Virus record (IMG/VR): IMGVR_UViG_3300034200_001443
Span: 70,381-134,380 of that record
DNA: 64,000 nucleotides
DNA from: a virus
Direction: 5' to 3' (one strand)
Positions within the stretch are counted from its first letter, which is position 1; each line of letters opens with the position of its first letter. Under the pieces are notes generated by a model. The model ran no database searches and was not told the DNA's origin. It saw only the letters and a program-made list of their open reading frames with translations. The position numbers and the translations under genes are program-made. Below, in pieces: positions 6,368 through 47,248 of this stretch.

Positions 6368-6579
6368 ACCAAAATCCCTTCTAATCCTTCGTCATTTCCA
6401 AAGTCGCTTGGACTTATTAAATCCAGCCACTCCCTAAATAAATAAACCAAACCTTCCTGCTCATTATTCCTTTTCTCAACAAGTCCCTCGTATAAGAAAT
6501 AGGCTTGATCTTCTACTAAATCTTCATAGGTTTCATAAGCTTCAATAAGCCGTAACTCTTCTAGCGTATAGGTTGGCAT
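6364..6579 (-). CDS. Acidic hypothetical protein
   Basis: GGGGTAAAAATG junction with the upstream gene. Confidence 0.6.
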   Translation of the reverse strand: MPTYTLEELRLIEAYETYEDLVEDQAYFLYEGLVEKRNNEQEGLVYLFREWLDLISPSDFGNDEGLEGILV

Positions 6580-6581
6580 TT

Positions 6582-6815
6582 TTACCCCTGCTCTTTAGTA
6601 AAGAGAAACGCAAAACCCGGACCATTACCTTCGGGGTCTTGGGATAAACATAAGCCTTCGCCATTATCGAACTCTAAGAAAGGAATTGGCTCATGGGCTG
6701 AAACTTCCCACCCCAACTCTTCTGCTTCTTCGGCAGTAGCATTTCTAACTTTTATGAGAGTCGCCCCTACGAGCGACCCCCACTCCTTCTCTAAGTATTT
6801 CGATAGGTCGCTCAT
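6582..6815 (-). CDS. Conserved phage hypothetical protein
   Basis: LVGATLIKVR...LSQDPEGNGPG; likely start MSDL. Confidence 0.6.
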   Translation of the reverse strand: MSDLSKYLEKEWGSLVGATLIKVRNATAEEAEELGWEVSAHEPIPFLEFDNGEGLCLSQDPEGNGPGFAFLFTKEQG

Positions 6816-7000
6816 GGGTATAACAAATCTAGGCAAAATTGGTTCATCTGCTCTGTTGGAACTTTGCACTCATCAGGTGTTGTTGCGTCATTAGCCCAAG
6901 CAAACAAACCTAGCAAGATAACGCCAACGGCAATTCGGCGTCTAATAAACTTTGCTTCTGTTTTCACTTTGTCCCTGCTTTCTGTGACTCCCTTAGCCAC
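6812..7000 (-). CDS. Small membrane protein
   Basis: RRR followed by TM helix and two Cys. Confidence 0.55.
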   Translation of the reverse strand: MAKGVTESRDKVKTEAKFIRRRIAVGVILLGLFAWANDATTPDECKVPTEQMNQFCLDLLYP

Positions 7001-7007
7001 TAGTAGA

Positions 7008-7036
7008 ACTTTACACTACTTTCCTGCTTTTTTCTA
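7008..7036 (-). promoter_or_regulatory. Early promoter with conserved spacer (motif duplicated at 7015-7047)
   Basis: TAGAAA-aaagcaggaaagtagtg-TAAAGT on the minus strand. Confidence 0.55.
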
Positions 7037-7234
7037 CTTTCCTGCTTTTTCCTTCTCTTTGGCGTGTCGCTTGGCTTCCTCTAGCAACTCCTCGAAACTT
7101 CTAAAGTCCTGCTCGAAAGAACTCCAACTCTGTGCCAAAACTTTCTCTTTTCTTTTTGAGGAACTAATACGGCGTGATTTTTTAGTAAGTCTCTTTACAG
7201 TTCCGTAAATTGCACTATCAGGCAAACCCCACAT
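7034..7234 (-). CDS. Small basic protein, paralog of 47249..47458
   Basis: Shared WSSF(E/D)QDxR(S/T)FE(E/Q)LL motif. Confidence 0.65.
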   Translation of the reverse strand: MWGLPDSAIYGTVKRLTKKSRRISSSKRKEKVLAQSWSSFEQDFRSFEELLEEAKRHAKEKEKAGK

Positions 7235-7258
7235 TTTTTACCCCTTCCCTTAGTTAAG

Positions 7259-7337
7259 ACTTAGTAGGGAGTCGTATTGTTTCCGCCCCTTGCAAGTTCT
7301 AGGCGTTCAGGTGACCAGCGACTTCCCCCTACTAAGT
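7259..7337 (-). ncRNA. Structured leader or small-RNA candidate
   Basis: ACUUAGUAGGG/CCCUACUAAGU closing stem with an inner hairpin, directly after the promoter at 7346-7374. Confidence 0.45.
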
Positions 7338-7345
7338 TAAAAGAA

Positions 7346-7374
7346 ATAATACACGACTTCCCTGACATTTTCAA
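7346..7374 (-). promoter_or_regulatory. Early promoter with conserved spacer
   Basis: TTGAAA-atgtcagggaagtcgtg-TATTAT. Confidence 0.75.
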
Positions 7375-7469
7375 ATTGACCGCACACGACACGCCAAGCC
7401 CCAAGTTCCCACACTTTTGTTTTTAGATAGAATAAAATTAAGACACAAGCCAAGAGAAAGGGAACTCAA

Positions 7470-7592
7470 ATGGCAAGAGTAAAAGCAAGAGAAGTAATGA
7501 TTTGGATAAATTGCTATCGGTGTGGAGAGCAATTCCAAATTAGACAGATAGATTATTACCGCAACCTAATTTGTAATGGTTGCTTAAAATGA
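7470..7592 (+). CDS. Small zinc-ribbon protein (40 aa)
   Basis: CYRC...CNGC; GAAAGGG RBS. Confidence 0.55.
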   Translation: MARVKAREVMIWINCYRCGEQFQIRQIDYYRNLICNGCLK

Positions 7593-7665
7593 ATTGCCAA
7601 ACCGCAAAATGGCTTTATGAGATTTACGGATACGGAAAAGCTCATGAGTGCGAAAAGTGTTCAAA

Positions 7666-7694
7666 TTGAGAAATGCAGGAAAGTAGTGTATCGT
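7666..7694 (+). promoter_or_regulatory. Early promoter with conserved spacer
   Basis: TTGAGA-aatgcaggaaagtagtg-TATCGT. Confidence 0.7.
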
Positions 7695-7745
7695 TAAGCC
7701 AGTTGGTTAATCATAGGGAATAACCACACTAACAAAGGGAAACAA

Positions 7746-8078
7746 ATGCCAGTTGCAAGTCGTGAAGTAATTGAGGAACAAATAGAAAACGCAGATAGAA
7801 GTCTTGCAGTTCTTTCTATCTTTGCTATGAACTACCACCTAGACCTTTCCAAATGGGAAAGCTTTGCAGATGACGCAGAGAATAATTATCTCGGTAACTA
7901 TGGAAGTCGTAGAACCTTTGCAGAGAATTATGCAGACCGCATTGGGATACTAAACTCAGGGGGCAACGGACAAATAGAAACTCTTGCTCGTTATTTTAAC
8001 TATGACCTTTGGGTGCATAACCTTTTCCAAGACGGAACAGTTTGGGAACATGAAGGTCATTACTTCCAAGCTCTTTAA
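7746..8078 (+). CDS. ardA: ArdA-like antirestriction (DNA-mimic) protein, C-terminal type
   Basis: Acidic; YLGNYGS..FAE.YAD...LARYFNYD.W...L...GHYF matches the ArdA C-terminal pattern. Confidence 0.65.
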   Translation: MPVASREVIEEQIENADRSLAVLSIFAMNYHLDLSKWESFADDAENNYLGNYGSRRTFAENYADRIGILNSGGNGQIETLARYFNYDLWVHNLFQDGTVWEHEGHYFQAL

Positions 8079-8088
8079 GAAGTGAGAG

Positions 8089-8118
8089 TAGCCCCCCAAG
8101 AAATTGGGGGGTTATTTT
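8089..8118. terminator. Terminator between convergent genes
   Basis: GCCCCCCAA-GAAA-TTGGGGGGT. Confidence 0.75.
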
Positions 8119-8687
8119 TATTCTCGGTATTGAGTTAAGAGGTAAAAAGGCTCGGCAGTTTTATTATCAAACTTTGAAGATACGGCGAGCGCAGTTTTAA
8201 TTCCTGATCTTGCATTAGTTAAAGTTCTTTTCTTTCCTTCTGATAAAGCATTAAGAACACCTAAAGCATAAGCTGAACCTGAACCTACCGCATAAGCCCC
8301 GACAGTATCGTGACACCAAGAGAAGTCTTCGCCTATCTCATAAACAGTTCCATTAACTAAAACAATTATTTGGCTTTCGTGTTCCCCGTCCTTTGAGTAT
8401 GAGGATTCCTCAAAACACTTCTTAAGTTCAGGGATAAAGACGGCAGTAATAAACTTATCTAGTTTTACCCCTAGAGTCGAAACAGTGCAGACAGGTGGCT
8501 TAAAGACATGAGCCAACAAGTTAATAGCCCGCACATCACCAGCTACTCCAATTATGTAATTTCCATTCTTAAAAACTTTCCCATTATCTTTCGGCAGAAT
8601 GTAACTACGCCCGTCCTCTTCTGAAACCCTAGAGTCATAGCCAATAACTGACCAGCCTTCACCCTGAACCGCAGCTATTGTTGTCAC
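8118..8687 (-). CDS. Proteasome beta/HslV-like Ntn peptidase (copy 1)
   Basis: N-terminal (M)TT nucleophile, DSR, K and AVGSGS motifs. Confidence 0.8.
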   Translation of the reverse strand: MTTIAAVQGEGWSVIGYDSRVSEEDGRSYILPKDNGKVFKNGNYIIGVAGDVRAINLLAHVFKPPVCTVSTLGVKLDKFITAVFIPELKKCFEESSYSKDGEHESQIIVLVNGTVYEIGEDFSWCHDTVGAYAVGSGSAYALGVLNALSEGKKRTLTNARSGIKTALAVSSKFDNKTAEPFYLLTQYRE

Positions 8688-8699
8688 TTCAATCCTTAC

Positions 8700-8945
8700 C
8701 TAGTAGTTAAAATTATCCCATAATTCATCACGCAAGGCGTATTCATACCTATCGGCAACCATAGAGTTTTTACCCCCTATGTCCTCACTTTCAATAAGTT
8801 TATCTAGTGAAAGAACCGCAGTGTATTCTTCGTCTTCAAACATGATTACTAACTTTGTATCTCCCTCGGCAGGATCATCAACTATAGCCACGACATACGG
8901 AGCGTTAGTTCCATTAGAGTGATAAACCTTTTGCACAATTTCCAT
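8700..8945 (-). CDS. Hypothetical protein
   Basis: ORF track; phage-like YHSNG motif. Confidence 0.6.
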   Translation of the reverse strand: MEIVQKVYHSNGTNAPYVVAIVDDPAEGDTKLVIMFEDEEYTAVLSLDKLIESEDIGGKNSMVADRYEYALRDELWDNFNY

Positions 8946-9035
8946 ACTCTAAAGAATAACCGCATCCAGCTTTCCTGATTTTTACCCCCCAAAAAGAAAC
9001 CCCCCACTTTTCGGTGAGGGGCTTAGAGAGTTTTA

Positions 9036-9272
9036 TTATGCTTCTCCCCATAGTTCTTCTAGGGTGTCGGGTTCATAGGGGTCGCCCATTTCTTCCTTCT
9101 CCTTTTCGAAAGTCCAAGCGTGTCCGCACTCGCACTTTACTTCTGAGGATACATTTCCCCAGTCGTCTGTCATAAAGTCTTCTTCCCAAGCCTTACCGCA
9201 CTCATAGCACTCTACTTCTAGAGTTACATCTTCGGCGTATATACCTGAGCCCTTCATACTTCCTTCGCTCAT
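9036..9272 (-). CDS. Acidic zinc-ribbon protein
   Basis: CYEC...CECGH; has its own promoter and RBS. Confidence 0.65.
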   Translation of the reverse strand: MSEGSMKGSGIYAEDVTLEVECYECGKAWEEDFMTDDWGNVSSEVKCECGHAWTFEKEKEEMGDPYEPDTLEELWGEA

Positions 9273-9302
9273 TTTCTTTCTCCCTTCTGAGCAAGTGTTT
9301 TA

Positions 9303-9331
9303 ATTCTACACTACCTACCTGACATTTTCAA
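9303..9331 (-). promoter_or_regulatory. Early promoter with variant spacer
   Basis: TTGAAA-atgtcaggtaggtagtg-TAGAAT. Confidence 0.75.
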
Positions 9332-9337
9332 TAGGGA

Positions 9338-9436
9338 CACTTCACCCCTGCTAGGGAGGCAAGGGTAAAGTGCGATAGGCATTGGAATACCTATCTCATC
9401 AGGGAGCGATAGGAAGGGAATCCGCGCTACTACCTG
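9338..9436 (-). ncRNA. Three-hairpin element with anti-SD-like loops
   Basis: First stem needs G-U pairs on the minus strand; loops read CUCCCUA and AUUCCCUUCCUAU. Confidence 0.45.
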
Positions 9437-9486
9437 GACTCCTATTCTAGCACCTACGATTTACCGCAAAAAACTTTTTACCCCTC

Positions 9487-9798
9487 TTAACCATTAAAAC
9501 AATCAGGACACTCTAACTCTCTAACCGCACCAGCTACTTCACTATTAACTTTCCCTCTTCCGTAACAAGTCTCGCAATTAGGGTCACCTTCATCTAAGAC
9601 TCCTATGTGATTACAAACCGCTTCTACATCCCACCCGTAGTGATGCTTCATTAACGCCTTTGCACTTCTAAGACAAGCGTCTTCATACACTTCGCCCTTT
9701 TCTACATCTTCTTCTCTTACCGCAACACTTACGATCATAGAGAAATAATCTCCTATAAAGATTACATTCTTCGGTGTAATTAAATTATCCATAGACAT
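9487..9798 (-). CDS. Hypothetical protein with C-terminal zinc ribbon
   Basis: CETCYGRG...CPDC. Confidence 0.6.
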   Translation of the reverse strand: MSMDNLITPKNVIFIGDYFSMIVSVAVREEDVEKGEVYEDACLRSAKALMKHHYGWDVEAVCNHIGVLDEGDPNCETCYGRGKVNSEVAGAVRELECPDCFNG

Positions 9799-9868
9799 AC
9801 CTTACCGCTTTTTACCCCCAACAAACAAGAAACCCCCGCCATTTCTGACGGGGGCTTCCTTTAATTTA

Positions 9869-10093
9869 TTACGCTACCGATACCCATTTAACGGCAGTGC
9901 TTAATACATTGTCGTAATCGCCTGACATACTTTCATCAAGATAAGCATTTATTTCTTCCTGAGAAACTCCTGCCTTTCTAAGTGCGTTAGCGACTCGTCC
10001 CATAATTGCAACGGCATTTCCGTCTTCGCCGACAAGTGCTACTTCAATCTCCGCATACTTTGGTGCATCAATCCCTATAAATTCTCTAGCCAT
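9869..10093 (-). CDS. Conserved phage hypothetical protein
   Basis: LVGEDGNAVAIMGRV..ALRKAG...SGDYD pattern; strong RBS. Confidence 0.7.
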   Translation of the reverse strand: MAREFIGIDAPKYAEIEVALVGEDGNAVAIMGRVANALRKAGVSQEEINAYLDESMSGDYDNVLSTAVKWVSVA

Positions 10094-10123
10094 TTTTCCC
10101 TCCTTTCGTCCCTAGTGTCTTTA

Positions 10124-10291
10124 TTATACTCCCGATAACTCTAATTTCAATTCATTTACAATCTTTTCTGCTTCGTGTGCCGTTAAGTATCTAGCCATAG
10201 CCCTGATAACTACAATCGGATTAGCTCCTGCTTCCAATACTTCGCCGATCACTTTTCTATTAAACTCATACTTATCCAATTCTTTTTCCAT
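10124..10291 (-). CDS. Hypothetical protein (55 aa, not in ORF track)
   Basis: MEKELDKYEFNRKVIGEV... starting at a GGGGTAAAAATG junction. Confidence 0.6.
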   Translation of the reverse strand: MEKELDKYEFNRKVIGEVLEAGANPIVVIRAMARYLTAHEAEKIVNELKLELSGV

Positions 10292-10293
10292 TT

Positions 10294-10686
10294 TTACCCC
10301 TCCTCTTCTTCATCTTTAATAAGGGTGAATGAGAAACCTGCGCCAGTAGGCTCGTCGTGGCTTGACCGTGTTGCAGTAAGGACTGTGCCTTCGTGCTTAA
10401 ACCGTAAATTAAAGTCGCCATTTATAGTTAGCGTGTTTAATACTTTGTCGAAAGAAACTATGGCTTCTCCACTTCTGTGTTGCCAACCCATATTTCTGCC
10501 AGTAATTCTTACGGTGTTCCAATCAACGCCTACTGCCTTGCGCCAGTTATTCATCATCTCTTTGAACAACCATTTAGAATCTTCCCAGCAATCGAAACAA
10601 TAATCGCTAGGCGTATCGTCTTCGTTAGTGCAAGTGCAATCGCTAGTCATTTCTAGCGTAATCTTTTCTTCGGTGTTTATGCTCAT
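10294..10686 (-). CDS. Hypothetical protein
   Basis: CxC...CxxC and SSHDEPTG motifs; RBS. Confidence 0.65.
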   Translation of the reverse strand: MSINTEEKITLEMTSDCTCTNEDDTPSDYCFDCWEDSKWLFKEMMNNWRKAVGVDWNTVRITGRNMGWQHRSGEAIVSFDKVLNTLTINGDFNLRFKHEGTVLTATRSSHDEPTGAGFSFTLIKDEEEEG

Positions 10687-10785
10687 AGTTTTACCTTTCC
10701 CTAGTTTTTATGAACAAGATAATTTTATCATACCTTTATGCAAATAGGGCTCTTTAACTCCGTATTCTTTTTTCCCAGCGTCCAG

Positions 10786-11004
10786 CTAAGAAACAATTAC
10801 ATCATCTAGCCAATAGCCCGCATACTTTTCTCCGTCTTTCATTTCATCATTGAAACTTTCCGCAAACAAGTCTCCCTCTTCGCTATCTATCCAGTTTTTA
10901 CCCTCGGCAAGAGTATCGAAAGAGATATGAGCCCAAACAATTTCTACATCATCATCTTCATTTCTAAGTATTGCTATCGCTTTATACGGCTTATCTATGA
11001 TCAT
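10786..11004 (-). CDS. Acidic hypothetical protein
   Basis: Junction motif at start. Confidence 0.6.
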   Translation of the reverse strand: MIIDKPYKAIAILRNEDDDVEIVWAHISFDTLAEGKNWIDSEEGDLFAESFNDEMKDGEKYAGYWLDDVIVS

Positions 11005-11006
11005 TT

Positions 11007-11312
11007 TTACCCCCCGTAGTCCTCATCTGTTCCATACCCTGCGCTTGCAAGAGTATCTGCGTCCGCTTCTACATCACTCATCTGTGGGATACCTTCGTCC
11101 GTTACCCAATAACCTGTTCCATCTGCGTTCAGAGTATTTTCCTCAATAGTCCAATCCGCTTCGTCCCAGCGAACTTCGTCCGTCATAATCTTGCCGATTT
11201 CATCTATGAACCTCTGCATAACCGCTTCGGCTTCTTCCATACTGCTCGCCTTGATTTCTACTATTGAGATAGTTAGGTCTCGCCCCGTTGAGTAATACTT
11301 TTCTGCGCTCAT
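11007..11312 (-). CDS. Acidic hypothetical protein
   Basis: Start MSAEK; C-terminal DADTLASAGYGTDEDYG. Confidence 0.6.
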   Translation of the reverse strand: MSAEKYYSTGRDLTISIVEIKASSMEEAEAVMQRFIDEIGKIMTDEVRWDEADWTIEENTLNADGTGYWVTDEGIPQMSDVEADADTLASAGYGTDEDYGG

Positions 11313-11422
11313 CACGCTACCTCGCAATCGTGTCCGTATGCCCACTCGCTTGCTTCTATTTCATCTAATAAATCAAACACACGCTTACACTCAACGCATC
11401 TTGCCTTAGTGCTAATTTTCAT
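11312..11422 (-). CDS. Small zinc-binding protein (36 aa)
   Basis: MKISTKARCVECKRVFDLL...YGHDCE; directly after a promoter. Confidence 0.55.
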   Translation of the reverse strand: MKISTKARCVECKRVFDLLDEIEASEWAYGHDCEVA

Positions 11423-11466
11423 TTTTATCTCTTTCCCTAGCCGTTAGCCCCTTGCTAACAATTCTT

Positions 11467-11495
11467 ATTATACACGACCTTCCTGCAATTTCATA
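11467..11495 (-). promoter_or_regulatory. Early promoter with conserved spacer
   Basis: ttgcaggaaggtcgtg-TATAAT. Confidence 0.7.
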
Positions 11496-11596
11496 CGATC
11501 CCCTGCCGTTTCTTTTTTACCCCTCGCCTTTTTACCTTGCCGTAGAAAGCAAAAACCCCCTGCTTTCGCAAGGGGCTTCTGCCGACTAGGGATTGT

Positions 11597-12031
11597 CTAT
11601 TTGGTAAGAACAACTGTGAAAGTGCTTTCCACCTTAGTCTTAGCAAAGACTTCAGGGAAATCCAATTCCAACTTTTTCTTATCTACATCTGTGCGATTAC
11701 GCTCGGAGATTGTAATTCTCGTTGCGCCGTTTAGTGTTCCCTTTTTAGCAACGCCGACCCATTTCTCGGTGCTACCAACTAACACTTTTTCCCAACCCAT
11801 TAGCAAATAAATTGCTTCTGTGGCTTCTTGCTTTTGCTTTTCCAAATCAGTAATCGCTTCACGCAATCTAACTAATTCGGCAACTGTGGCTTCTGCCTTT
11901 TTCTTGTTCTTATCAAGCGAAATAACTTCACTTGTTGCTACAACTGTTGTTTCATCAACAACTGTCTTGATTGTTTTTCCAGCAACCTTTTTAGTGGTGC
12001 TAGTGGTGGTGCTTTTGATAGTGCTACCCAT
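11597..12031 (-). CDS. Hypothetical protein (coiled coil, basic C-terminus)
   Basis: Has its own promoter, RBS and a terminator at ~11551-11580. Confidence 0.7.
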   Translation of the reverse strand: MGSTIKSTTTSTTKKVAGKTIKTVVDETTVVATSEVISLDKNKKKAEATVAELVRLREAITDLEKQKQEATEAIYLLMGWEKVLVGSTEKWVGVAKKGTLNGATRITISERNRTDVDKKKLELDFPEVFAKTKVESTFTVVLTK

Positions 12032-12086
12032 TTGGATACTTCCTATTCATTTCGTCATTTCCTAGGCGTTGTTGCCTAGTAAAAGA

Positions 12087-12116
12087 ATAATAACCTACTT
12101 TCCTGCCTTTCGTCAA
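12087..12116 (-). promoter_or_regulatory. Early promoter with conserved spacer
   Basis: TTGACG-aaaggcaggaaagtaggt-TATTAT. Confidence 0.8.
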
Positions 12117-12140
12117 ATCCAAACCTATCGTGTCGGGAAA

Positions 12141-12344
12141 TTAGTATCCCTCGGCATAGACTTCCTGTTCCTCGTCATAGAGTCCTGTGTAAATAACTAC
12201 CTGCCCCTCATTGTCGTATTCGTGTCCAACCCTTTTGGCTAGGTTATCCACAAGGTATTCGGTAGTAATTGTCCAGCGTGAAATACCAAATCCAATCCCA
12301 GCACCGATAATCATCATCAGTAAAGTGAAACCATTGAAAAACAT
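12141..12344 (-). CDS. Small membrane protein
   Basis: N-terminal TM helix; junction motif. Confidence 0.6.
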   Translation of the reverse strand: MFFNGFTLLMMIIGAGIGFGISRWTITTEYLVDNLAKRVGHEYDNEGQVVIYTGLYDEEQEVYAEGY

Positions 12345-12346
12345 TT

Positions 12347-12604
12347 TTACCCCTTATCCGTATTAGCGACAACTTTTTGTGCGATCTCTACAAAGTCCTC
12401 AGCAGCAGAGCTTTGGAAATACCACTCTCCGTTTTCGTAATTCTCTATTACCTCAGACCATTGTTCGTCCGTTAGTGTTAGGTCAGGCTTTTCTCCCCAA
12501 CCCGAGCCGTATGACTCAATAATCTTTTTATCCCAATAAGCGACAATCAACTCGTCCTCGCCGTCATAACTTTTCAATTGTTCTAATAAATCTTTTACTT
12601 TCAT
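12347..12604 (-). CDS. Hypothetical protein
   Basis: Start MKVKDLLEQL at 12604. Confidence 0.65.
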   Translation of the reverse strand: MKVKDLLEQLKSYDGEDELIVAYWDKKIIESYGSGWGEKPDLTLTDEQWSEVIENYENGEWYFQSSAAEDFVEIAQKVVANTDKG

Positions 12605-12666
12605 TTTTACCCTTCCCCTTTGGTAAGGCACGCCGTTAGACGTGCCCTATAAGTTGTGTGACGCCG

Positions 12667-12903
12667 TTAGTAAGAGGCTCCTAGTTTGTCAGGATTATTT
12701 ACTGCATAGTCCATGCCGTCATTGTATCCAGCATAATAAAGACTCTCTAGCCGTTCGGCTAAAGCCTTTGTTGCCTTGTCTATGTTAGACATACTCGCCT
12801 CAAAATACATTATTTCTTCGGCTTGTTCTTTTACATCTTTACGAACTTCTTTTTTTGTTCTCAATTTTTCTACATCACCCCCCCGTAAGTTTCTTTCCAA
12901 CAA
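12667..12903 (-). CDS. Hypothetical protein (start uncertain)
   Basis: ORF track; AGYNDG motif. Confidence 0.5.
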   Translation of the reverse strand: MLERNLRGGDVEKLRTKKEVRKDVKEQAEEIMYFEASMSNIDKATKALAERLESLYYAGYNDGMDYAVNNPDKLGASY

Positions 12904-13103
12904 TTAGGGTGCGTGCCTGTAAGCATTTGCTCACGCAACGCTTTATCTAAATCAGGGTAAGCCTCTTGAATAAGTCCACCAAGTTGCCTAACCAAAAAAC
13001 CTTCCATAGGAACTTCTACTTGCCCGTAATCTCCACACACAAAACATTTTGGAGTTTCCACAATGTAAGTCGTGTTCTTTACCATTTCACCGAAAGCCGT
13101 CAT
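12870..13103 (-). CDS. Small zinc-binding phage protein
   Basis: CFVC...IQEAYPDL...REQMLTGTHPNCW. Confidence 0.65.
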   Translation of the reverse strand: MTAFGEMVKNTTYIVETPKCFVCGDYGQVEVPMEGFLVRQLGGLIQEAYPDLDKALREQMLTGTHPNCWKETYGGVM

Positions 13104-13145
13104 TTTTTTCCCTTTCTGTTCGGTAAGTTTATTGTATCAGATTTA

Positions 13146-13442
13146 CTATTCAATTCCAAGTTCTTGGCGAATAGTGTCTACCGCTTCCATCCACGCTGCT
13201 GCTCGGACTTCATTGAGGACATCATCGTTCACGAAAAGTCTGAGAAACTTCAACCATTGTTCGTTTGTAATCTCAACTCCAAGATCAGACTCTACATCTG
13301 ACTTACACCAGACGCCCCAATGAACGAGTTCATTTTCGTCAAACTCTTGCGAAATAAACTCCGCAACTTGACCAGCCGTAAGGAACTCTGCATCTTCTTC
13401 TAATTCATCATCATCTATCTCTATGTCATTTTGATTTGTCAT
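13146..13442 (-). CDS. Acidic hypothetical protein
   Basis: 4-bp overlap with the upstream gene. Confidence 0.6.
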   Translation of the reverse strand: MTNQNDIEIDDDELEEDAEFLTAGQVAEFISQEFDENELVHWGVWCKSDVESDLGVEITNEQWLKFLRLFVNDDVLNEVRAAAWMEAVDTIRQELGIE

Positions 13443-13951
13443 TTTATATCACCCCCTAAAAAACCTTGATTCTTTTTATGGCGAAAGTTCTTTATATTGA
13501 AAGTAGTGTGACCCGTAGCCTCTGCTATTTCACGGGCAGTTATTTTATTGTCGATAGCAAGGATTATTAGTTCTTGCTTTCTTTTTTTCAGGTCGGAATA
13601 TTGTTTAGAAATAATTTCCAACTCGGTGAGAATTTTTACCGCAGTAGTGTCTACTGTTACTGACTTTGGTCTGCCCACTCTAAACTTCTGTGTAGATTTC
13701 ACCTCACCTTTTTGAGTGAAACCAATAGAGTAACTCTGCTTTACTCTTTTATAGCGATTAGTTATTGCTTGACTGCTTTGATAACCTAGAGCAAGAGCAA
13801 GTTCTACTGCCGAAACTCCTCGCTCAATCTCATCTACAATCAGTCTGTCAAACTCTAAAACTTCAACCGCAGCTCTATTACCGCCCCACGCTTTCTTTTG
13901 GTCTGGTTTTAGTTCTAGCAATCTTTCGATTACCTTCTCGTCTGCTTTCAT
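13439..13951 (-). CDS. Two-HTH DNA-binding protein
   Basis: GVSAVELALALGY and ITAREIAEATGHT patterns. Confidence 0.6.
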   Translation of the reverse strand: MKADEKVIERLLELKPDQKKAWGGNRAAVEVLEFDRLIVDEIERGVSAVELALALGYQSSQAITNRYKRVKQSYSIGFTQKGEVKSTQKFRVGRPKSVTVDTTAVKILTELEIISKQYSDLKKRKQELIILAIDNKITAREIAEATGHTTFNIKNFRHKKNQGFLGGDIK

Positions 13952-13996
13952 CAGCGAGATACCCCTTTCGTCATTTGGATAGTTATTATAGCATTT

Positions 13997-14491
13997 TTAG
14001 TGGTGGAAATCTGCAATAACCGCAAATTGTTTTTTCGGGTCTTTTTCTATTCTTTCCATAAGATAAAAAAGCCCCCCTGTTCCTGCCTCTAAATCCCAGA
14101 TAGCACTATCGCTATTCCAGTAATCAGCAATCAAAGTTCCAATCCTTCTTATGTAAAAACCAACCATACCTAAATCAAAGTTATTTATTCTTGGGTCATA
14201 ACTATCTATAACTTCACCTAAAGTTTTACCCTCTTTATCGAAAGCAGCTAAACTTTCTTTCATGTGAGTATGGCGATACTCGGAAAAAGTATTTATCCAT
14301 TTCATAAATACTTCAGGGTCATTAGCGTAATTCAGAGCATTAGTAGGTTCATCATCTCCGAACATACCTGTCCAGCGACCACCAACTTCAGACCAATCAG
14401 ACCAATCTGCTTCTTCTAGTCTGCTTTCAACTATCCCTATTGCTTCTTGGTGAGTATCTGCCTCAACCAAAAGTAATTGAACACAATGCAT
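13997..14491 (-). CDS. Conserved phage hypothetical protein
   Basis: MH...DWSEVGGRW...V.ADFHH pattern. Confidence 0.65.
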   Translation of the reverse strand: MHCVQLLLVEADTHQEAIGIVESRLEEADWSDWSEVGGRWTGMFGDDEPTNALNYANDPEVFMKWINTFSEYRHTHMKESLAAFDKEGKTLGEVIDSYDPRINNFDLGMVGFYIRRIGTLIADYWNSDSAIWDLEAGTGGLFYLMERIEKDPKKQFAVIADFHH

Positions 14492-14536
14492 TTTTTACCC
14501 CTCGTCATTTTGTCTTAGGTCTATTCTACCAAAAAT

Positions 14537-15004
14537 CTACTCCAAATCAAGAACCACGACTTGTCTGCCCTCAACTTGTGGCATTTGATTATTTTCAATC
14601 ATGCAGACATTTACAAATTGTTCAATCAGGTATTGGCAAGCATGGTCAAAGGCTTCATCTGCTTGGTGATTGACCATGTCCAAATGCTCTCCGTCAGAAC
14701 TGTAAACATCAAACCACGAATTGTTTTGCCAATCCAATCGGGGATAATTCCCAGAACTTGCTTCTGCTAAAGCTTTATCCGTAAGTAGATCATCAGGGAA
14801 CTCGCTACTGTTTGTGTAAGTGCTACCCGTTTCCCTGTCCTCAATCTTGGTATCTCCGTCTACATAAATCGTGACTTCAAAATCTCCTAGTCCTACTTTG
14901 CAGACCGCTCCCTTTTCCCACCACACGCTTTCTTGGTGGTCGCCGTCAGGTGTGTTTCCATCAAGCCAAAAGAACTCAATCTCGTATTCCCCTGCCGTTG
15001 GCAT
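14537..15004 (-). CDS. Acidic hypothetical protein
   Basis: Junction motif; WQNNSWF. Confidence 0.6.
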   Translation of the reverse strand: MPTAGEYEIEFFWLDGNTPDGDHQESVWWEKGAVCKVGLGDFEVTIYVDGDTKIEDRETGSTYTNSSEFPDDLLTDKALAEASSGNYPRLDWQNNSWFDVYSSDGEHLDMVNHQADEAFDHACQYLIEQFVNVCMIENNQMPQVEGRQVVVLDLE

Positions 15005-15006
15005 TT

Positions 15007-15234
15007 TTACCCCTCGTTCAGTTTTTTCAAGAGCGAGCCTACTTGTTCCGTTGCTTCGTATTCCAAATCCATTTCGATAGGGTCGTCATAATTTAATGTT
15101 CTCCACCTGCCCTCATCATGATCTACTCCGTCCCATACCGGGCCGTTCTTAAACCATGAACCTAAAGCTTCGTCTGCCGATGCCCATTTTTTTGTTTCCG
15201 TATTAAAACAAATTAAGTAATGGATTTCTGCCAT
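15007..15234 (-). CDS. Hypothetical protein
   Basis: TAATG coupling with the upstream gene. Confidence 0.6.
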   Translation of the reverse strand: MAEIHYLICFNTETKKWASADEALGSWFKNGPVWDGVDHDEGRWRTLNYDDPIEMDLEYEATEQVGSLLKKLNEG

Positions 15235-15386: not shown

Positions 15387-15703
15387 TTTTTCCCTTTCGT
15401 CATTTGTTCTTGTTATCCAATCCTATCATACCTATCCAAATACCCGTCAATACCAAATTAAAGTTTTTACTTCCTATGCTCTCTTTTTAATTTTTGAGCG
15501 TAATTCCCGGTAGGGTGCTACCTTTTTTTCGGAACTAAAAACTTCTAGTTAAAGGTGTTTAGTTTTACTGTGGTGCGGAAAATAAGTTATTCACTTCCGT
15601 CATGCTTCAGCTAATCCACGCTCACGACTACTTCGGTCTGCTGACTTGGTGGGGAACTGAAAACTTCCACACGATCTTGCGACCCGTTTCTTTTTACCCC
15701 GAC

Positions 15704-15818: not shown

Positions 15819-17600
15819 TCACGCCACGAACCTTTGCCCTGCCGTTGATAAAACTTTCTCGGCGTTCTTGCCGATAATTAAAGCAGACACACTTGGGTCA
15901 GTTATGTTCTCAACAACTTGGGCGTTCGCCGTTCCACAAATATGTTTAGCAGTTGAGCCGTTATCGCCAATCGGTAGCCATAGAACTGCTACGCCGTTCT
16001 TTGAGCAACGAGCAACCCACGCCTTTGCGTTCTCTGTTTCCTCATGTGTGTAGTGTCCGTCAGATACAACAACTAATAATCTTGCGCCCTCACCATTAAG
16101 TAGATTGAGTGCGCCGTCCAAAGCACGAAACGCTTTATCAAACTTTTCAGTTCCGTCAGGGGCAGAATAAACATTTACTTCTTTTAGTCGTTGCCCTGCT
16201 TTTAGAGTTGGGAAAACATCTGAACCATAATAAACCATAGCGCAACGACCCTGAACTCGGCGAACTGCCTCACTCATAATCCAAGCAGTAGAAGCCATTG
16301 GGTTCATAGCAGAACTCATTGACCCTGAAATATCTACCATTACGCCAACTGAAAGTGTTGGTTCATCTGTGTGCTTACGAACTTTTTTTGAGAAAGCAGT
16401 TGGTTGAGAATAAACTCCACGACTTTCCAAAGCCTTAGCCTCAATTACTTTTCTCATGTTTAATTTTCCGGGTGGAACAATACTTTTAACTTTAGTTATT
16501 CCACGCTCACGATACTTTGCTCTTTCTAAAGCCTTAGCAATTTTAACTGCGCTATTGCGTTCTTGACCATTAGGGCTTCGCTTCTCAACTAACTTAGAAG
16601 CAGTATGCGCTTCCCCCGGACCTGAACTCTTTGAGAATACTTGACGAGCAATTTCCTCATTTTTCTTTTGCTCTTTAGAAGTATTGGCTTTAGCAGTTGC
16701 GCTCTCTTTCATATCCTCTGATTGCTTTTGGTCTGCTAATTCATTGGCATTAGAAATAGAAATACTTTCGCTCATCTCGCCAAGCATTTCGCTAATCATT
16801 TCAGCAAAGGCTTCTTGTTGTTCTTGGGTTGGTTGTTCCCCTGCTTCCTCTGCCTTTTCACGAACTAATTTCGCCCACTCAATCGCTAGTGGATAGCAAG
16901 CAGAAATATCAGTATGAGTTGCGTGGTCTTGGAACTGATAAATAATTTCTTTTAATTTCATAACTAAATCAGAACCTAAAATCCCATTGACTTTATCTAC
17001 TAAATCAAAGGCTTCTAATTCATCAAGCGACCCTGCGATAATTCTTGCGTGGCATAATCCAACTAAAGAACTAGCAGAACGAATTGTTGATTGCTCTGAA
17101 AATACTTCTTTGGCTTCGTCAATAATTAAACCCATAGCACTTGCTCGTAAAAAAACTTTTGCGTCAGCGTGGGTCTTAATACCCCATGCTTCTATGCGAC
17201 CTTCCTCTAGCAACATCAAAGCCTCAAACTCATCTTGCTTTAGTGTCTTACCTGCTAGTGGAATATCCCATGCTGAAAACTTTGCGTGGTATGCCTCATG
17301 GCGAATTGCGCCAACTGCTTTAGCAAACTCGTATTGGTTCTTTCGCTTTGTTAAATCGTCAATCATGTTAGGTGTAGTGATTTCGCCAAAGGCTACTTTT
17401 GTATTTACTTCTACTTCTGCGAGAGCAGGTAAGAAACAAGCAGGTGCGCCTTGACCTGCTTCTGTTCCTAGTAAAGCAACTAGGTCAGTTCTATCAGCCC
17501 AAGTATTTACTAATTGAGTAATTTCATATCCAACTCCTAGCCAATCGCTAGGTGTCTTAATCTTGGAACGATTAAGTTCCTGTGGCTTTATGTGTGCCAT
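15819..17600 (-). CDS. VWA-domain protein (CobT/NorD-like) with N-terminal HExxH motif
   Basis: VDISGSM MIDAS motif, VVSDG and HEAYH. Confidence 0.85.
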   Translation of the reverse strand: MAHIKPQELNRSKIKTPSDWLGVGYEITQLVNTWADRTDLVALLGTEAGQGAPACFLPALAEVEVNTKVAFGEITTPNMIDDLTKRKNQYEFAKAVGAIRHEAYHAKFSAWDIPLAGKTLKQDEFEALMLLEEGRIEAWGIKTHADAKVFLRASAMGLIIDEAKEVFSEQSTIRSASSLVGLCHARIIAGSLDELEAFDLVDKVNGILGSDLVMKLKEIIYQFQDHATHTDISACYPLAIEWAKLVREKAEEAGEQPTQEQQEAFAEMISEMLGEMSESISISNANELADQKQSEDMKESATAKANTSKEQKKNEEIARQVFSKSSGPGEAHTASKLVEKRSPNGQERNSAVKIAKALERAKYRERGITKVKSIVPPGKLNMRKVIEAKALESRGVYSQPTAFSKKVRKHTDEPTLSVGVMVDISGSMSSAMNPMASTAWIMSEAVRRVQGRCAMVYYGSDVFPTLKAGQRLKEVNVYSAPDGTEKFDKAFRALDGALNLLNGEGARLLVVVSDGHYTHEETENAKAWVARCSKNGVAVLWLPIGDNGSTAKHICGTANAQVVENITDPSVSALIIGKNAEKVLSTAGQRFVA

Positions 17601-17777
17601 GTCTTTCGTCCTTTTCTAATCGTGTGTCCTTACAAAACCTATCATACCATTTTGGGGGGGATAATCAAACTTAGGGCTTGGCGTGGGGTGGGGAACTTGG
17701 GAAGTGATTTTAGATCCTGGAACCAAAGCTTTAACCCTGCCCTGCGTTATTTAGTTTTATTTACCCCTAGTTATTTA

Positions 17778-17812
17778 GAGAGTGGGAGTAGAGATACCTA
17801 ACTCCCACCCTC
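17778..17812 (-). ncRNA. Hairpin with a loop antisense to the RBS of gene 18912..19370
   Basis: 12-bp stem; loop GGUAUCUCU can pair with AGAGAUACC at 19372-19380. Confidence 0.5.
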
Positions 17813-17840
17813 AAAGCCAACACTAGGTTCTAGGGAAAAC

Positions 17841-18899
17841 CTAGATTTTCGCTGGCTTATGCTCTGCGCCGAACGCCCGAGCAATTACATCAACAACTAC
17901 ATCTCTATCTATTTCAGGTGCGCTCGCAATTAAATTAGAAATTGCGAACTCTGTTCCAAAGACTTCACTTGTATCTCTGAAACCTAGCAACTCACGCATT
18001 TGTGGCGACCATGAGATTTCAGCACTATCGCCTTGTGTGCGCTTGTATAGATTTTGAGCAACGCTAACCATTGTCGCTGGCACTCCTAACTTCTTTGCCA
18101 ACGCCCAATCAGTAGTTAGTTCTGCTTGGATTTGGAAACGAGATATTAACGCTTCACTCATGCGAACCCCCGGAGCATTTGGGTTAGTAGCAGAAACTAC
18201 ATAAAAATCCTCATGGACTTTAATAGTTCCTCTTTCAGGGTTCATTGGAATTGTTATCTCTTTTCGTCCGTCCATTACTGAATAGACAACTGCTAAGGCT
18301 TTAGGGTCAATCAAACCAATCTCGTCAATAAAGAAAGGCTTTCCAAACTCAACTGCCTTAATAAATCCTGCGTCAATCCACTCAAACTTTCCACTTGGGG
18401 TCTGAATAAACGAACCATAAAAATCATTGGTATCAGTATCACCATTACCAATTAAAGTTATTACTTCGTCATTAGAAAAACTTGCTTCTACTAAAGCAGT
18501 TTTTCCTGTTCCCGGAACTCCATAGAAAAATGCGAATTGTGGAGAACCAACGCCCTCTGAAAAGAACTTCTTAGTTGCTTCTCTTGCTCGGCGTAGAACT
18601 GCTACATCAGTATGAACTCCCCATTGGCGAGTGAAATACTTTTGTCCATTAGGGCGAACATAGAACTCATCAGCACTCATGTTATCCACCTCAACTCCAC
18701 TAGGGGTCATAGCACTAACTCGCTCTCTCGCTTTTCTTTTATCGCCACTTGCTCGCTCAACGCAACGACCACTTGGTAGAACTTTTGCGCTAAGTCGCAA
18801 AGAAGTATCCTCATGGACACTTTGGGTCAAGCAATCAGAAACGATATTCCAAAAATCGCCTCTTAAAGAAGCCAACTTGTCTTTGATAATTGTATCCAT
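17841..18899 (-). CDS. MoxR/CbbQ/CobS-like AAA+ ATPase
   Basis: GVPGTGKT Walker A, FIDEI Walker B, ATNP and ALISRF. Confidence 0.88.
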   Translation of the reverse strand: MDTIIKDKLASLRGDFWNIVSDCLTQSVHEDTSLRLSAKVLPSGRCVERASGDKRKARERVSAMTPSGVEVDNMSADEFYVRPNGQKYFTRQWGVHTDVAVLRRAREATKKFFSEGVGSPQFAFFYGVPGTGKTALVEASFSNDEVITLIGNGDTDTNDFYGSFIQTPSGKFEWIDAGFIKAVEFGKPFFIDEIGLIDPKALAVVYSVMDGRKEITIPMNPERGTIKVHEDFYVVSATNPNAPGVRMSEALISRFQIQAELTTDWALAKKLGVPATMVSVAQNLYKRTQGDSAEISWSPQMRELLGFRDTSEVFGTEFAISNLIASAPEIDRDVVVDVIARAFGAEHKPAKI

Positions 18900-18911: not shown

Positions 18912-19370
18912 CTAAGCAATCTCAACAGGAAAGCCAAGTGCTTTTCTGCTTTGGTTGATACGATAAACAACTTTGATAGGTGTTTCACCTTTGTAAATCT
19001 CAATTAAATCATTTTGAGAAGTTTCTATCAGAATTGGGTCATTTACTAATTGCCAATCACCCTCAACCAATCCTGCGAAAATAGAGTTCAGGTGTTCTAA
19101 ACGCTTAGAAACATAAGTGTCTTTAAGACCTAGTTCTGCTAAATCTTGTGAGCCAACTTTTGCTAATTCCTCTGCGAACTGAACAGTTGTCTGTTGCCAT
19201 AACTTCTTTGGCTTTTCTCTAGAAACAATCCTGCGATAAATCTTGGCAGGAACTAAATCACCTGACGGCGTAAATCCGTCAGGGGTAATAAACATTTCTG
19301 TTCTGTATCCCGATTTTGCGAACTCGGCATAAACAGAAACACCCTGAATTGACTTTTCTTTGTCTAGCAT
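18912..19370 (-). CDS. Hypothetical protein upstream of the AAA+/VWA pair
   Basis: RBS and promoter; co-oriented. Confidence 0.7.
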   Translation of the reverse strand: MLDKEKSIQGVSVYAEFAKSGYRTEMFITPDGFTPSGDLVPAKIYRRIVSREKPKKLWQQTTVQFAEELAKVGSQDLAELGLKDTYVSKRLEHLNSIFAGLVEGDWQLVNDPILIETSQNDLIEIYKGETPIKVVYRINQSRKALGFPVEIA

Positions 19371-19470
19371 TGGTATCTCTTTTCGTCATTTACCTAATTC
19401 CCTACGAACTAGGTGTTGGGTCAATCTTACCATTTTCTATCATAGAAGCAAATTAGGCTAGGTGTGTCTT

Positions 19471-19523
19471 AAAAAAGGTTCTACCCCCACACTAAAATGA
19501 CGAGTAAAAGTATGGGGGTAGAA
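19471..19523 (-). terminator. Terminator whose 15-nt loop is antisense to the AAAUGACGA leader motif
   Basis: 15-bp stem with a G-U on the minus strand, U6 tail; loop UUUACUCGUCAUUUU. Confidence 0.7.
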
Positions 19524-19589
19524 ATCTATGTTTCCAGTTCCTAAGAAAGAGAAGCTTTAGAAAACCCTTTCTATGAGAACTGAAAGTTA

Positions 19590-19880
19590 TCAGTTCATAT
19601 CGACTTCGATCAACTGTGCTGGAAGTTCGTCGGCAGGGGGTAAAACTTTGTGCGGTTTAATTCCGTACTTTTTAAATTCTTTTTTATACTTCTTTGAGTC
19701 ACGACCCTCTGTAATCCAATCCGATATCAGTCGTGCAACCAAAAAGCGTTCCTCGTCCTTAGCTTCACGAACTAACAAGAAGTCCTCGTGTATCCAGTTT
19801 TCTGTACCAATCACCGTTATCTTGTCAGCGTTTCCGTAGTTTCCGTCAACATCAAAATAATGTATACGTCCCATGGGCAC
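19590..19880 (-). CDS. Hypothetical protein
   Basis: YFDVDGNYG motif; GAAAGGAG RBS. Confidence 0.65.
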   Translation of the reverse strand: MPMGRIHYFDVDGNYGNADKITVIGTENWIHEDFLLVREAKDEERFLVARLISDWITEGRDSKKYKKEFKKYGIKPHKVLPPADELPAQLIEVDMN

Positions 19881-20869: not shown

Positions 20870-21110
20870 TGTGTTCCTCATGTTCTATTACAGACTGAGT
20901 AATCTCTAAACCAAGAGCCTCAATCGCTGTCCCTAAATCGTCAATCGCTTCATCTATATTTTGACGAACATCAAAGTAATCCCATGGATTCTCGTCAGTC
21001 TTTGGTGAGCGAATGTATTGCAAATCAACTGCACATGAAACTGCAATGTTAATTACCTTAATTGCATTCTCATCACCAGCCAAATACTTTTCTGCTAGTT
21101 CTTGATACAT
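20862..21110 (-). CDS. Hypothetical protein
   Basis: Start reassigned to MYQEL (21110), directly after AAATGACGAAAGGG. Confidence 0.6.
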   Translation of the reverse strand: MYQELAEKYLAGDENAIKVINIAVSCAVDLQYIRSPKTDENPWDYFDVRQNIDEAIDDLGTAIEALGLEITQSVIEHEEHNA

Positions 21111-21340
21111 GTTTTCCCTTTCGTCATTTGTTTGGTCAAGCAATAGAAAATCTATCATAGAGATTCCAATGACGCAAGCACCTGAGTCAGGAGTTTCTTT
21201 CTTAACCAAAAGTTTTCATTTCCCCTCCAGGTCCCTGCACCTCCAGGTGGTTTTACGCTCAAAGGCCTGGGCGCTTAACAGCACGCCAATAACTTATTTT
21301 CCGGGCTGATGACCTTCTTCTGGTGTCCCATCTGAATTTA

Positions 21341-21716: not shown

Positions 21717-21872
21717 CTAGCTTGCCGCTTTTTGATTTTCCTCAATCAGCGTTCTTAGTTGACTAGCCGTTGTTATGCTAGCAATGGCACCGACCAAATA
21801 CTCGATACCGTTATCACCCCACTTAGAGCGGACCACATCAGCGAGCCGTGTTTCTAACTCCGACTGAATCAT
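21717..21872 (-). CDS. Hypothetical protein (51 aa, not in ORF track)
   Basis: MIQSELETRLADVVRSKWG...; ATGA overlap. Confidence 0.55.
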   Translation of the reverse strand: MIQSELETRLADVVRSKWGDNGIEYLVGAIASITTASQLRTLIEENQKAAS

Positions 21873-22210
21873 GCCGTCTCCAATGCCAAGTGATAACTTA
21901 TAAAGGTTTCAAATGGAACGGGCGTGCCGTTGTGGATAACTAGTTGTTTCTCAAAGTCGACGGTTGTGGTGTCGTAAGACTCCTCGCCGCCAATGTCGAC
22001 AGACAAGCCGTAGCCTGTTTCTGAATCCCACTGGTTACCGATTAACTGTGAGACAGCAATCCGAATGGCGTAGTTGTTGTCTTCCCATCGTGGCTTTGCT
22101 TTAGCAATTGCATAAGCAAGGTCCGCTAGTTTGGAGTCGCCGCCCCAATGTGAGTAGAGCACTACGTCATGCCCGTTTGATTTGAAATTGAAGTTTGTTC
22201 TTGAACCCAA
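21869..22210 (-). CDS. Conserved phage hypothetical protein
   Basis: TTG start (MGSRTNF) after AAATGACGAAAGG; LYSHWGG motif. Confidence 0.65.
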   Translation of the reverse strand: MGSRTNFNFKSNGHDVVLYSHWGGDSKLADLAYAIAKAKPRWEDNNYAIRIAVSQLIGNQWDSETGYGLSVDIGGEESYDTTTVDFEKQLVIHNGTPVPFETFISYHLALETA

Positions 22211-22368
22211 TTGTTTTCCTTTCGTCATTTAAATCCCTAGGGTCCCCTAGTAAATCTATTATATAACTATCCTAAGGGCATGTGTCAACTACTGACGCCG
22301 AAGAATTTTTGATGTCTTCTGGCCCATCAATAGATAATGTTATTTCCGGGGATCCAGATCTGCAGCTG

Positions 22369-44930: not shown

Positions 44931-45003
44931 GCCTTCGTAGCTCAGGGGATAGAGCGAGACTCTTCTAAGGTCTGCGTCGCAGGTTCAATTCCTGCCGGGG
45001 GCA
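44931..45003 (+). tRNA. tRNA-Arg(TCT)
   Basis: Cloverleaf with GCCTTCG/CGGGGGC acceptor, CT-TCT-AA loop and GGTTCAATTCC T-arm. Confidence 0.9.
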
Positions 45004-45007
45004 CTTA

Positions 45008-45081
45008 GCGCTATTAGCTCAGTCGGTTAGAGCCCTGAACTCATAATTCAGTCGTCGCAGGTTCAAGTCCTGCATAGCGCA
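45008..45081 (+). tRNA. tRNA with CAT anticodon (elongator Met or Ile2)
   Basis: GCGCTAT/ATAGCGC acceptor and CTGAA-CTCATAA-TTCAG arm; lacks initiator features. Confidence 0.88.
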
Positions 45082-45110
45082 CTTAAGTTTAAATAAAATA
45101 AATCCTAAAA

Positions 45111-46860: not shown

Positions 46861-46884
46861 CAGATACAATAGAACCTGTAGACT
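46857..46884 (+). promoter_or_regulatory. Promoter, duplicated at ~47198-47225
   Basis: TTGACA-gatacaatagaacctg-TAGACT, identical in both copies. Confidence 0.8.
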
Positions 46885-46907
46885 AGATCCAACGACGAAA
46901 GGGAAAA

Positions 46908-47201
46908 ATGAATATTACTTTTAAACATCACAACTACCATTCAGATACTGCAACAGTTCACACTCTCTGCGGAGGATATTCAGAAAATCGAGATTTGTTA
47001 ATGCGAAAGATTGCTTCTCGTAGTTTTATGATTTATTTTAGTATGCGTAGATCAACTGCATGGATACCCACTTTTATTAGTAAAGTTGCTAGTAGAGTTT
47101 TATTAGGTAGAAAATGTCTTGATTGTAAAAGACGAGCTATTCTTGGTTTTAGTAAAAAAGGAAACATCTGTTTTTGTTTAGATAATATATCTAATACTTG
47201 A
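46908..47201 (+). CDS. Hypothetical Cys-containing protein
   Basis: GAAAGGG RBS; lies between the duplicated promoters. Confidence 0.55.
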   Translation: MNITFKHHNYHSDTATVHTLCGGYSENRDLLMRKIASRSFMIYFSMRRSTAWIPTFISKVASRVLLGRKCLDCKRRAILGFSKKGNICFCLDNISNT

Positions 47202-47248
47202 CAGATACAATAGAACCTGTAGACTAGATCTAACGACAAAAGGACTAT

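Follow-up and report, generated by a model that had tools for sequence, protein, structure and literature searches.

Results

The window analyzed here, i.e. the whole stretch of 64,000 nucleotides, spans bases 70381-134380 of an IMG/VR virus record that is 134,380 bp long and has direct terminal repeats. Throughout positions 1-28,600 of the window the genes are carried on the minus strand and consist mainly of small ORFs. A DNA search revealed no near-identical DNA in named phages, and the nearest named phage is DSL-LC01, a metagenome-assembled Actinomycetia phage displaying 55% identity across the AAA-ATPase.

An intrinsic-terminator-like hairpin, delineated by its predicted fold, by stem covariation and by comparison with relatives, is located on the minus strand at 19471..19523. 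It lies 66 nt past the stop codon of a 96-aa ORF on the same strand (19590..19880), the mRNA of which is predicted to end at the hairpin. Read along the minus strand the hairpin comprises a 5' arm (19523-19509), a loop of 15 nt (19494..19508), a 3' arm (19493-19479) and a tail (19478-19471). Folding of the minus-strand RNA of 19462-19535 yielded a 15-bp stem, the loop UUUACUCGUCAUUUU and a CC+U6 tract adjoining the 3' side of the stem, at -25.1 kcal/mol (z -5.07), and none of 200 shuffled sequences was as stable. The original prediction of a 15-bp stem with a U6 tail and an unusually large loop is thus borne out by the fold.

The hairpin has the stable G+C-rich stem with compensatory changes, the U-tract and the upstream same-strand gene that characterize intrinsic terminators, and the T-run is present in all 24 hairpin variants that we compiled. 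It departs from them in its loop, which measures 15 nt in the window and 13-15 nt in relatives, as opposed to 3-8 nt in the definition used for terminator scanning; since the consensus scan accepts loops of 3-8 nt only, the hairpin is absent from its output. A looser scan of the whole genome returned 12 terminator-like hairpins, and a long stem was combined with a large loop only at 19471-19523. Searches against Rfam 15 gave no family at or above its gathering score in the window except two tRNAs, and within 19300-19700 the best match had an E value of 0.46, all matches being far under the gathering scores. Judged by sequence, the hairpin is a member of no described RNA family. Genes for tRNA-Arg(TCT) and tRNA-Met(CAT) are adjacent on the plus strand at 44931-45082.

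Profile searches with the two genes flanking the hairpin, the 96-aa ORF upstream and a 152-aa gene downstream (18912-19370, minus), returned no Pfam or PHROG family. The structure model of the 96-aa protein was poor (pLDDT 62.3), and that of the 152-aa protein (pLDDT 73.7) gave no fold match in the PDB, with E 0.068 at best. Between the terminator and the leader of the 152-aa gene, some 20 nt beyond the hairpin, we spotted by eye a promoter-like element, TTGCTT-N16-(TGn)TAAGAT (19424..19451, minus), which falls under the threshold of the scan tool and is to be regarded as a candidate. Four lake metatranscriptomes share 5-14% of sampled words with the region. Contigs assembled from these four lake-water runs span parts of 15.6-19.3 kb and 21.2-22.6 kb, not the hairpin, and are uninformative on RNA ends or strand.

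Further along the minus strand (15819-18899) an AAA-ATPase of 352 aa is paired with a 593-aa protein that displays a weak match to VWA_CoxE (23.7 bits, below the cut-off of 26.4). Synteny of the genes for the ATPase, the 593-aa and the 152-aa proteins extends to phages of Gordonia and Microbacterium and to DSL-LC01; in the latter the counterpart of the 593-aa protein is annotated as a cobalamin biosynthesis protein.

The leader motif

The 9-mer AAATGACGA occurs nine times in the window versus 0.40 copies expected (both strands, 64 kb), a number reached in none of 100 shuffles, and the remainder of the 134,380-bp genome contains none. The minus strand, i.e. the gene strand, carries eight of the copies, all of them found 10-21 nt ahead of a start codon, with one ambiguous case. 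From right to left in the window they are located at 21121..21129 (10 nt before the ATG at 21110), 19383..19391 (12 nt before the ATG at 19370, the start of the 152-aa gene), 15397..15405 (10 nt before the ATG at 15386), 14502..14510 (10 nt before the ATG at 14491), 13968..13976 (16 nt before the ATG at 13951), 12052..12060 (20 nt before the ATG at 12031) and 6389..6397 (21 nt before the ATG at 6367). The ambiguous copy, at 22222..22230, either precedes a TTG at 22210 or overlaps an ATG: the ORF 21869-22228 has its first in-frame ATG within the motif itself (22228), with AGGGA five nt upstream, and for this reason the motif may or may not precede the start there. The operon ending at the hairpin probably has the copy at 21121 in its first leader.

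The ninth copy is found on the plus strand at 19495-19503, within the hairpin loop, and is the sole reverse-strand copy in the genome. This agrees with the claim that prompted the analysis, namely that the loop is the reverse complement of a motif preceding eight start codons, with the reservation made above for the copy at 22222.

The sense copies are situated beside Shine-Dalgarno sequences, and mostly run straight into AAGG or AGGG. Sigma-70-like hexamers are found upstream of several of the motif-led genes, which we presume to be early genes. The spacing between the motif and the -10-like hexamer varies from 8 to 32 nt, whereas the spacing between the motif and the Shine-Dalgarno sequence is fixed. 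This anchoring to the Shine-Dalgarno sequence and start codon, and not to the promoter, points to a role of the motif's own at the RNA level. At the leader of the gene starting at 15386 the motif is retained in the orthologous position in the related loci L114, L116, L118 and L133, despite different upstream flanks. Profile searches with the eight motif-led gene products gave no Pfam domain and no PHROG family.

A short upstream ORF opened by the AUG of the motif was considered as a general explanation and rejected, as it is present at 15386 and not at 14491 or 21110. At 15386 the AUG of the motif opens a 6-codon upstream ORF, the UGA of which overlaps the main AUG (AUGA). Several leaders (12061-12085, 19392-19415 and 22231-22250, minus) have a small stem-loop of the CTAGG...CCTAG type directly 5' of AAATGACGA, which may be a 5' stabilizer or part of a recognized element.

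Complementarity of the loop

The two halves of the loop are complementary to different parts of an initiation region. The 3' part, UCGUCAUUU, is antisense to AAAUGACGA, and the 5' part, which with the closing U included reads UUUUACUC, complements GGGUAAAA, one pair being G.U. In the leader of the gene starting at 14491 an 11-nt match, AAAAUGACGAG, is followed by GGG and then by UAAAA, and this leader is consequently predicted to pair with the whole loop; the 11-nt match resuming after three G residues, as originally described, can be read directly from the sequence. Apart from the G-run, the complement of the loop resembles a whole initiation region.

A second motif, GGGTAAAA, is present in 27 copies in the window versus 2.72 expected. 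Twenty-four of these are on the minus strand, where the octamer is spread over 2492-28679, and eight abut an ATG. The 5' half of the loop is complementary to these eight GGGTAAAA(A)ATG initiation regions (6580..15012, minus; 6587, 7243, 10299, 11012, 12352, 12612, 14500 and 15012), which on sequence grounds are possible further targets of that half. The octamer serves as Shine-Dalgarno sequence plus spacer before ATG; it also occurs just after terminator T-runs, and in L116-L118 its reverse complement follows terminators (TTTTACCCCC). The argument from the second motif is weakened accordingly. On the plus strand an identical 30-nt box, acagatacaatagaacctgtagactagatc, precedes two genes (~46860-46902 and 47201-47243), with the subsequent leaders reading CAACGACGAAAGG and TAACGACAAAAGG; this box may be a repeated promoter of another expression class.

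Conservation in relatives

Relatives were sampled through the flanking proteins and not through the loop. A search with the ATPase identified 21 IMG/VR loci, of which nine, those at 76-95% ATPase identity, contained the hairpin. Alignment of the 152-aa protein yielded 27 metagenome loci, all 27 with the hairpin. Wherever a relative retains both flanking genes the hairpin is retained too: in the main survey it was present in 34 of 34 related loci, and in addition in L115 and L134. All 35 loci tested have a homologue of the 96-aa gene (56-97% identity) upstream of the hairpin, and the flanking proteins are 56-97% and 62-92% identical among related loci. Some of the metagenome and IMG/VR contigs probably represent the same record, and distinct sequences were therefore counted. 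This gave 24 distinct hairpins of 63 nt, the one in the window included, each of which folds with a loop of 13-15 nt.

The stem displays clear covariation. Among 13 hairpins in one alignment register (11 of the 24 were omitted for register shifts) both sides had changed in six of the 15 pairs, 99.5% of cells were paired, and none of 500 shuffles reached the score. RNAalifold applied to all 24 hairpins recovered nine pairs, five with double changes.

Mean pairwise identity over 26 distinct regions of 190 nt was 0.90 for the loop and 0.94 for its core. The corresponding values were 0.88 (leader motif), 0.79 and 0.76 (stem arms), 0.71 (promoter-like region), 0.42 (spacer) and 0.44 (5' flank). The putative seed is in other words the best conserved stretch between the two flanking genes, above the stem that displays it, and conservation extends over the whole loop, including the 5' half, beyond the part matching the 9-mer. 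Loss of the loop alongside a retained leader motif had been named beforehand as one outcome that would refute the original prediction, and this is not what we observed: the loop is retained in the 34 + 2 loci while the stem changes with compensation. From these comparisons the hairpin with its antisense loop is clearly real and under selection, and selection on the loop sequence in its own right appears to be the best explanation.

The association also recurs at the level of whole contigs. Contigs of five relatives carry 3-7 clustered sense copies (3-8 when the window is included) and one antisense copy in the hairpin. A scan of IMG/VR with the 15-nt loop returned at least 109 stretches, nearly all of them stemless chance matches, and the hairpin was found only in the known relatives. 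A second conserved hairpin is found in L115, L117 and L118. It has a covarying stem of 13 bp around 22 nt, is followed by a T-run and lies ~2.4 kb upstream of where the ATPase begins.

The match was noticed post hoc and AU-rich loops are common, and an ordinary terminator loop could in principle match the motif by chance. With 0.40 copies of the 9-mer expected in 64 kb, a match that falls within a 15-nt loop and is kept across 24 distinct hairpin sequences makes coincidence an extremely improbable explanation.

Loop variants

The core TCGTCATTT was unchanged in 24 of the 26 distinct sequences. In L149 and the identical L120 and L161 the core reads TCGTCGTTT (A to G) and the downstream leader AAACGACGA, such that a U-A pair between loop and leader is replaced by C-G in this lineage; the new G could form wobble pairs with the U of the six AAATGACGA leaders of the same contig. 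Loops of the L119 type display AUUCG for ACUCG (C to U), which allows an extra pair with the A after the motif in most leaders, and L150 (CCGTCATTT) has lost one terminal pair. When the loop and the adjacent leader were evaluated as a 9-bp helix, 94.9% of cells paired and there was one double change, a result equaled by 106 of 500 shuffles. The covariation between loop and leader should consequently be regarded as anecdotal, since it is confined to the L149/L120/L161 lineage and is not significant.

In loci of the L116 type (eight loci, four of the 26 distinct sequences) the adjacent leader is degenerate, reading GAACGACAC or GAACGACAA, and three of the nine pairs with the loop are broken, while the loop is intact. 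Contigs of this type contain four sense copies in all, three of them within ~6 kb around the loop.

These variants bear on whether the pairing, if real, acts in cis only and not across the regulon. Two forms can be envisaged: in one, read-through transcripts allow the loop to pair with the leader ~110 nt farther downstream, and the 152-aa gene is silenced or processed on these transcripts; in the other, the loop pairs with the 5' leader of its own operon ~1.1-1.6 kb upstream and joins both ends of the mRNA. A motif leader is indeed found directly downstream in 22 of the 26 distinct sequences, in the window as well as in L114, L116, L119, L120 and L133 another such leader precedes the loop by 1.1-1.6 kb (possibly on the same transcript), and the single compensatory change concerns the adjacent leader. 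However, the unchanged loop beside a degenerate leader disfavors a purely local cis role with that leader, and the promoter-like element between the terminator and the adjacent leader would permit expression of the 152-aa gene without read-through. We regard action in cis only as unlikely.

Predicted pairing strength

The seed complementarity of 9-11 nt to eight leaders is located near ribosome-binding sites, and the predicted duplexes between loop and leaders are modest, ranging from -10.8 to -15.2 kcal/mol, with the 14491 leader at -15.2. Across the genome (duplexfold, both strands) 150 sites pair at least as strongly as the weakest leader, and 35 at -12.7 kcal/mol or better. Thermodynamic ranking of targets is not discriminating. 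Accessibility of the motif was predicted to be uneven, with probabilities of being unpaired from 0.01 to 0.65 in segments of set length, from -55 to +25. A helix of 9-11 bp within a closed loop of 15 nt is moreover sterically strained. The original prediction of one RNA antisense to a whole regulon is upheld in part, as regards complementarity, conservation and recurrence in five relatives, and finds no backing in the duplex energies, which are unselective, or in covariation, which amounts to one event.

The lack of statistical support for the pairing (the 106 of 500 shuffles above) could be taken to mean that the loop is kept for another reason, e.g. as an RNA site for a protein or nuclease or for the tuning of termination, and that its complementarity is a relic of an inverted initiation region such as that at 14491. 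The complement of the loop, AAAAUGACGAGUAAAA, does read like the 14491 initiation region without the GGG, and a loop conserved in its entirety, beyond the 9-mer match, fits such an origin. A relic would nevertheless be expected to decay, yet the core is at 0.94 between flanks at 0.42-0.44, and the changes observed are those that pairing tolerates. As to a protein partner, Pfam searches for RegA (PF01818) and RegB (PF10715) gave no match in the 134-kb genome, a result to be interpreted with caution since the control genomes also gave none and the search thus had no positive control. Taken together, this explanation does not seem likely to us.

The leader cassette in distant relatives

Outside the clade that carries the hairpin, the leader motif is found in related forms. 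L170 (59% G+C) has AAATGACGAAAGGA before a homologue of the 152-aa gene (40% identical), and L171 has the form AACGACGAAAGGA. DSL-LC01 (OQ999401.1, 24012-43360) contains 16 sense copies of ACGACGAAAGG. All 11 copies inspected follow a GTTATAAT-type promoter, from which their distance varies, and precede the ATG by 6-14 nt; the promoter box itself is near-identical among them (ttctaaag..GTTATAAT..gaatca). A complementary loop was not found in L121, L122, L124, L130, L131, DSL-LC01, L170 or L171. A single reverse-strand near-match in DSL-LC01 was considered as an antisense partner and rejected, as it lies inside a CDS.

The occurrence of the cassette without a complementary loop in these phages indicates that the cassette does not need the loop. 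From this distribution the leader cassette looks like the older element, and the low-G+C clade seems to have acquired its loop afterwards, with the cassette as target.

These observations also concern the reading in which a DNA-binding protein, e.g. an early-gene repressor or a roadblock of the "stoperator" type, recognizes AAATGACGA, with the loop copy an inverted site and the hairpin just a terminator. An asymmetric 9-mer with nine copies grouped within 16 kb and close to promoters would suit such a site, loop and leaders show identical variants (T/C at position 4), and a complement is inseparable from an inverted site on sequence alone. Against this, the motif keeps its place relative to the Shine-Dalgarno sequence and start codon and not relative to the hexamers, its distance to the promoter varying in DSL-LC01 as well as in the window. 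One orientation is common to eight of the nine copies, in each relative the sole inverted copy coincides precisely with an RNA hairpin loop, and the loop length of 13-15 nt is maintained. Nor did the search for a candidate DNA-binding protein yield one, the neighboring products being without Pfam match and the 152-aa model without fold match. We consider a DNA site rather improbable.

Discussion

The reading that we tentatively favor, and hold to be plausible though short of probable, is that an antisense loop displayed on the 3' end of an mRNA pairs with the leaders of early genes. According to this hypothesis the hairpin would both serve as a Rho-independent terminator and provide the early mRNA of the 96-aa gene with a stable 3' end. 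The enlarged loop would expose the antisense of the initiation cassette of early genes, AAAUGACGA, located just 5' of the Shine-Dalgarno sequence, and the other half of the loop would target GGGUAAAA, i.e. the Shine-Dalgarno sequence and spacer. Action would mainly be in trans, with the loop as part of the full mRNA or of a decay-resistant 3' fragment; two leaders in cis could be reached as well, namely the one at the 5' end of the operon to which the loop belongs and, where transcription reads through, the next one. Such a duplex would abut or overlap the Shine-Dalgarno sequence and fall within the footprint of the ribosome, and the most likely effect would for that reason be lower translation initiation as the hairpin accumulates. 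The outcome would be a delayed negative feedback on the early genes. Accumulation of the RNA, its pairing, its action in trans and the ensuing repression are all four steps that we infer, and regulon-wide repression in trans by the hairpin RNA has the same standing.

A more far-reaching hypothesis is that a lytic actinophage times the shut-off of its early genes by RNA, with a bipartite loop seed blocking ribosome entry at the two cassettes (AAAUGACGA and GGGUAAAA) of ~15 early genes, as an Hfq-independent counterpart of T4 RegA/RegB that was superimposed on an older cassette. We consider this version possible but doubtful. To our knowledge actinobacteria are without Hfq, and known Hfq-independent regulators display their seeds in hairpin loops.

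Several known systems share features with the proposed one. The CI RNA of P4 and the c4 RNA of P1/P7 are similar phage antisense RNAs. The relation between c4 and ant is described in a review (PMC12197685). The likeness lies in a phage RNA transcribed in the same direction as its target, with pairing of exposed loops at ribosome-binding regions, which is predicted in the present case. c4 and CI differ in that they govern the immunity of temperate phages and act on one target operon, and in that c4 is cut from a precursor. In the present phage, by contrast, a terminator loop at an mRNA 3' end would have at least eight separate leaders as candidate targets, and nothing in the genome is a sign of lysogeny.

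Among cellular RNAs, a comparison can be made with small RNAs derived from the 3' ends of mRNAs, most of which carry the seed upstream of the terminator and not in its loop, and with loop-seed regulators of Gram-positive bacteria such as RNAIII, in which the loop of a terminator hairpin binds Shine-Dalgarno regions. The proposed similarities are a terminator that doubles as a regulator, a seed in the loop, several targets at initiation regions and independence of Hfq. These RNAs are cellular, however, whereas in the phage the 5' flank is unconserved (0.44) and the hairpin alone would constitute the whole regulator, which is so far known from its sequence. Compared to an ordinary intrinsic terminator, the element has the covarying G+C-rich stem, the U-tract and the position 66 nt after a stop codon, but its loop of 13-15 nt, in place of 3-8 nt, is more conserved than the stem.

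In purpose, the proposed system would be closest to that of T4, where RegB recognizes GG*AGRAYARAA at early Shine-Dalgarno sequences (PMC3014915). The proposed parallel is that a motif common to the initiation regions of many early mRNAs allows their control after transcription; RegB and RegA are proteins, whereas the regulator proposed here is an RNA. By analogy, the mode of action would thus be most like that of antisense regulators with a loop seed, and the purpose would resemble that of T4 RegB/RegA.

In the literature that was covered, which includes few of the subscription journals, we found neither this hairpin element described nor any regulator that acts on phage early leaders through a terminator loop. 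Hardly any small RNA of a lytic phage has a known function. Recent transcriptome studies list phage sRNAs with unknown targets (PMC11512511). The present case offers a specific pair of regulator and targets, i.e. a hairpin of ~50 nt with a defined loop seed and a defined set of leaders, with comparative backing from uncultured freshwater actinophages. Independently of the loop, the leader cassette N(A/C)(T/C)GACGAAAGG, which is found in phages of 41% to 59% G+C, is a translation-initiation element worth separate study.

In conclusion, if the proposed pairing is true, the loop of a terminator alone could serve as a regulator of multiple targets, and shut-off of early genes by RNA would be possible in these phages. 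Oversized and conserved terminator loops would then provide a handle in the search for such regulators in metagenomic phage genomes.
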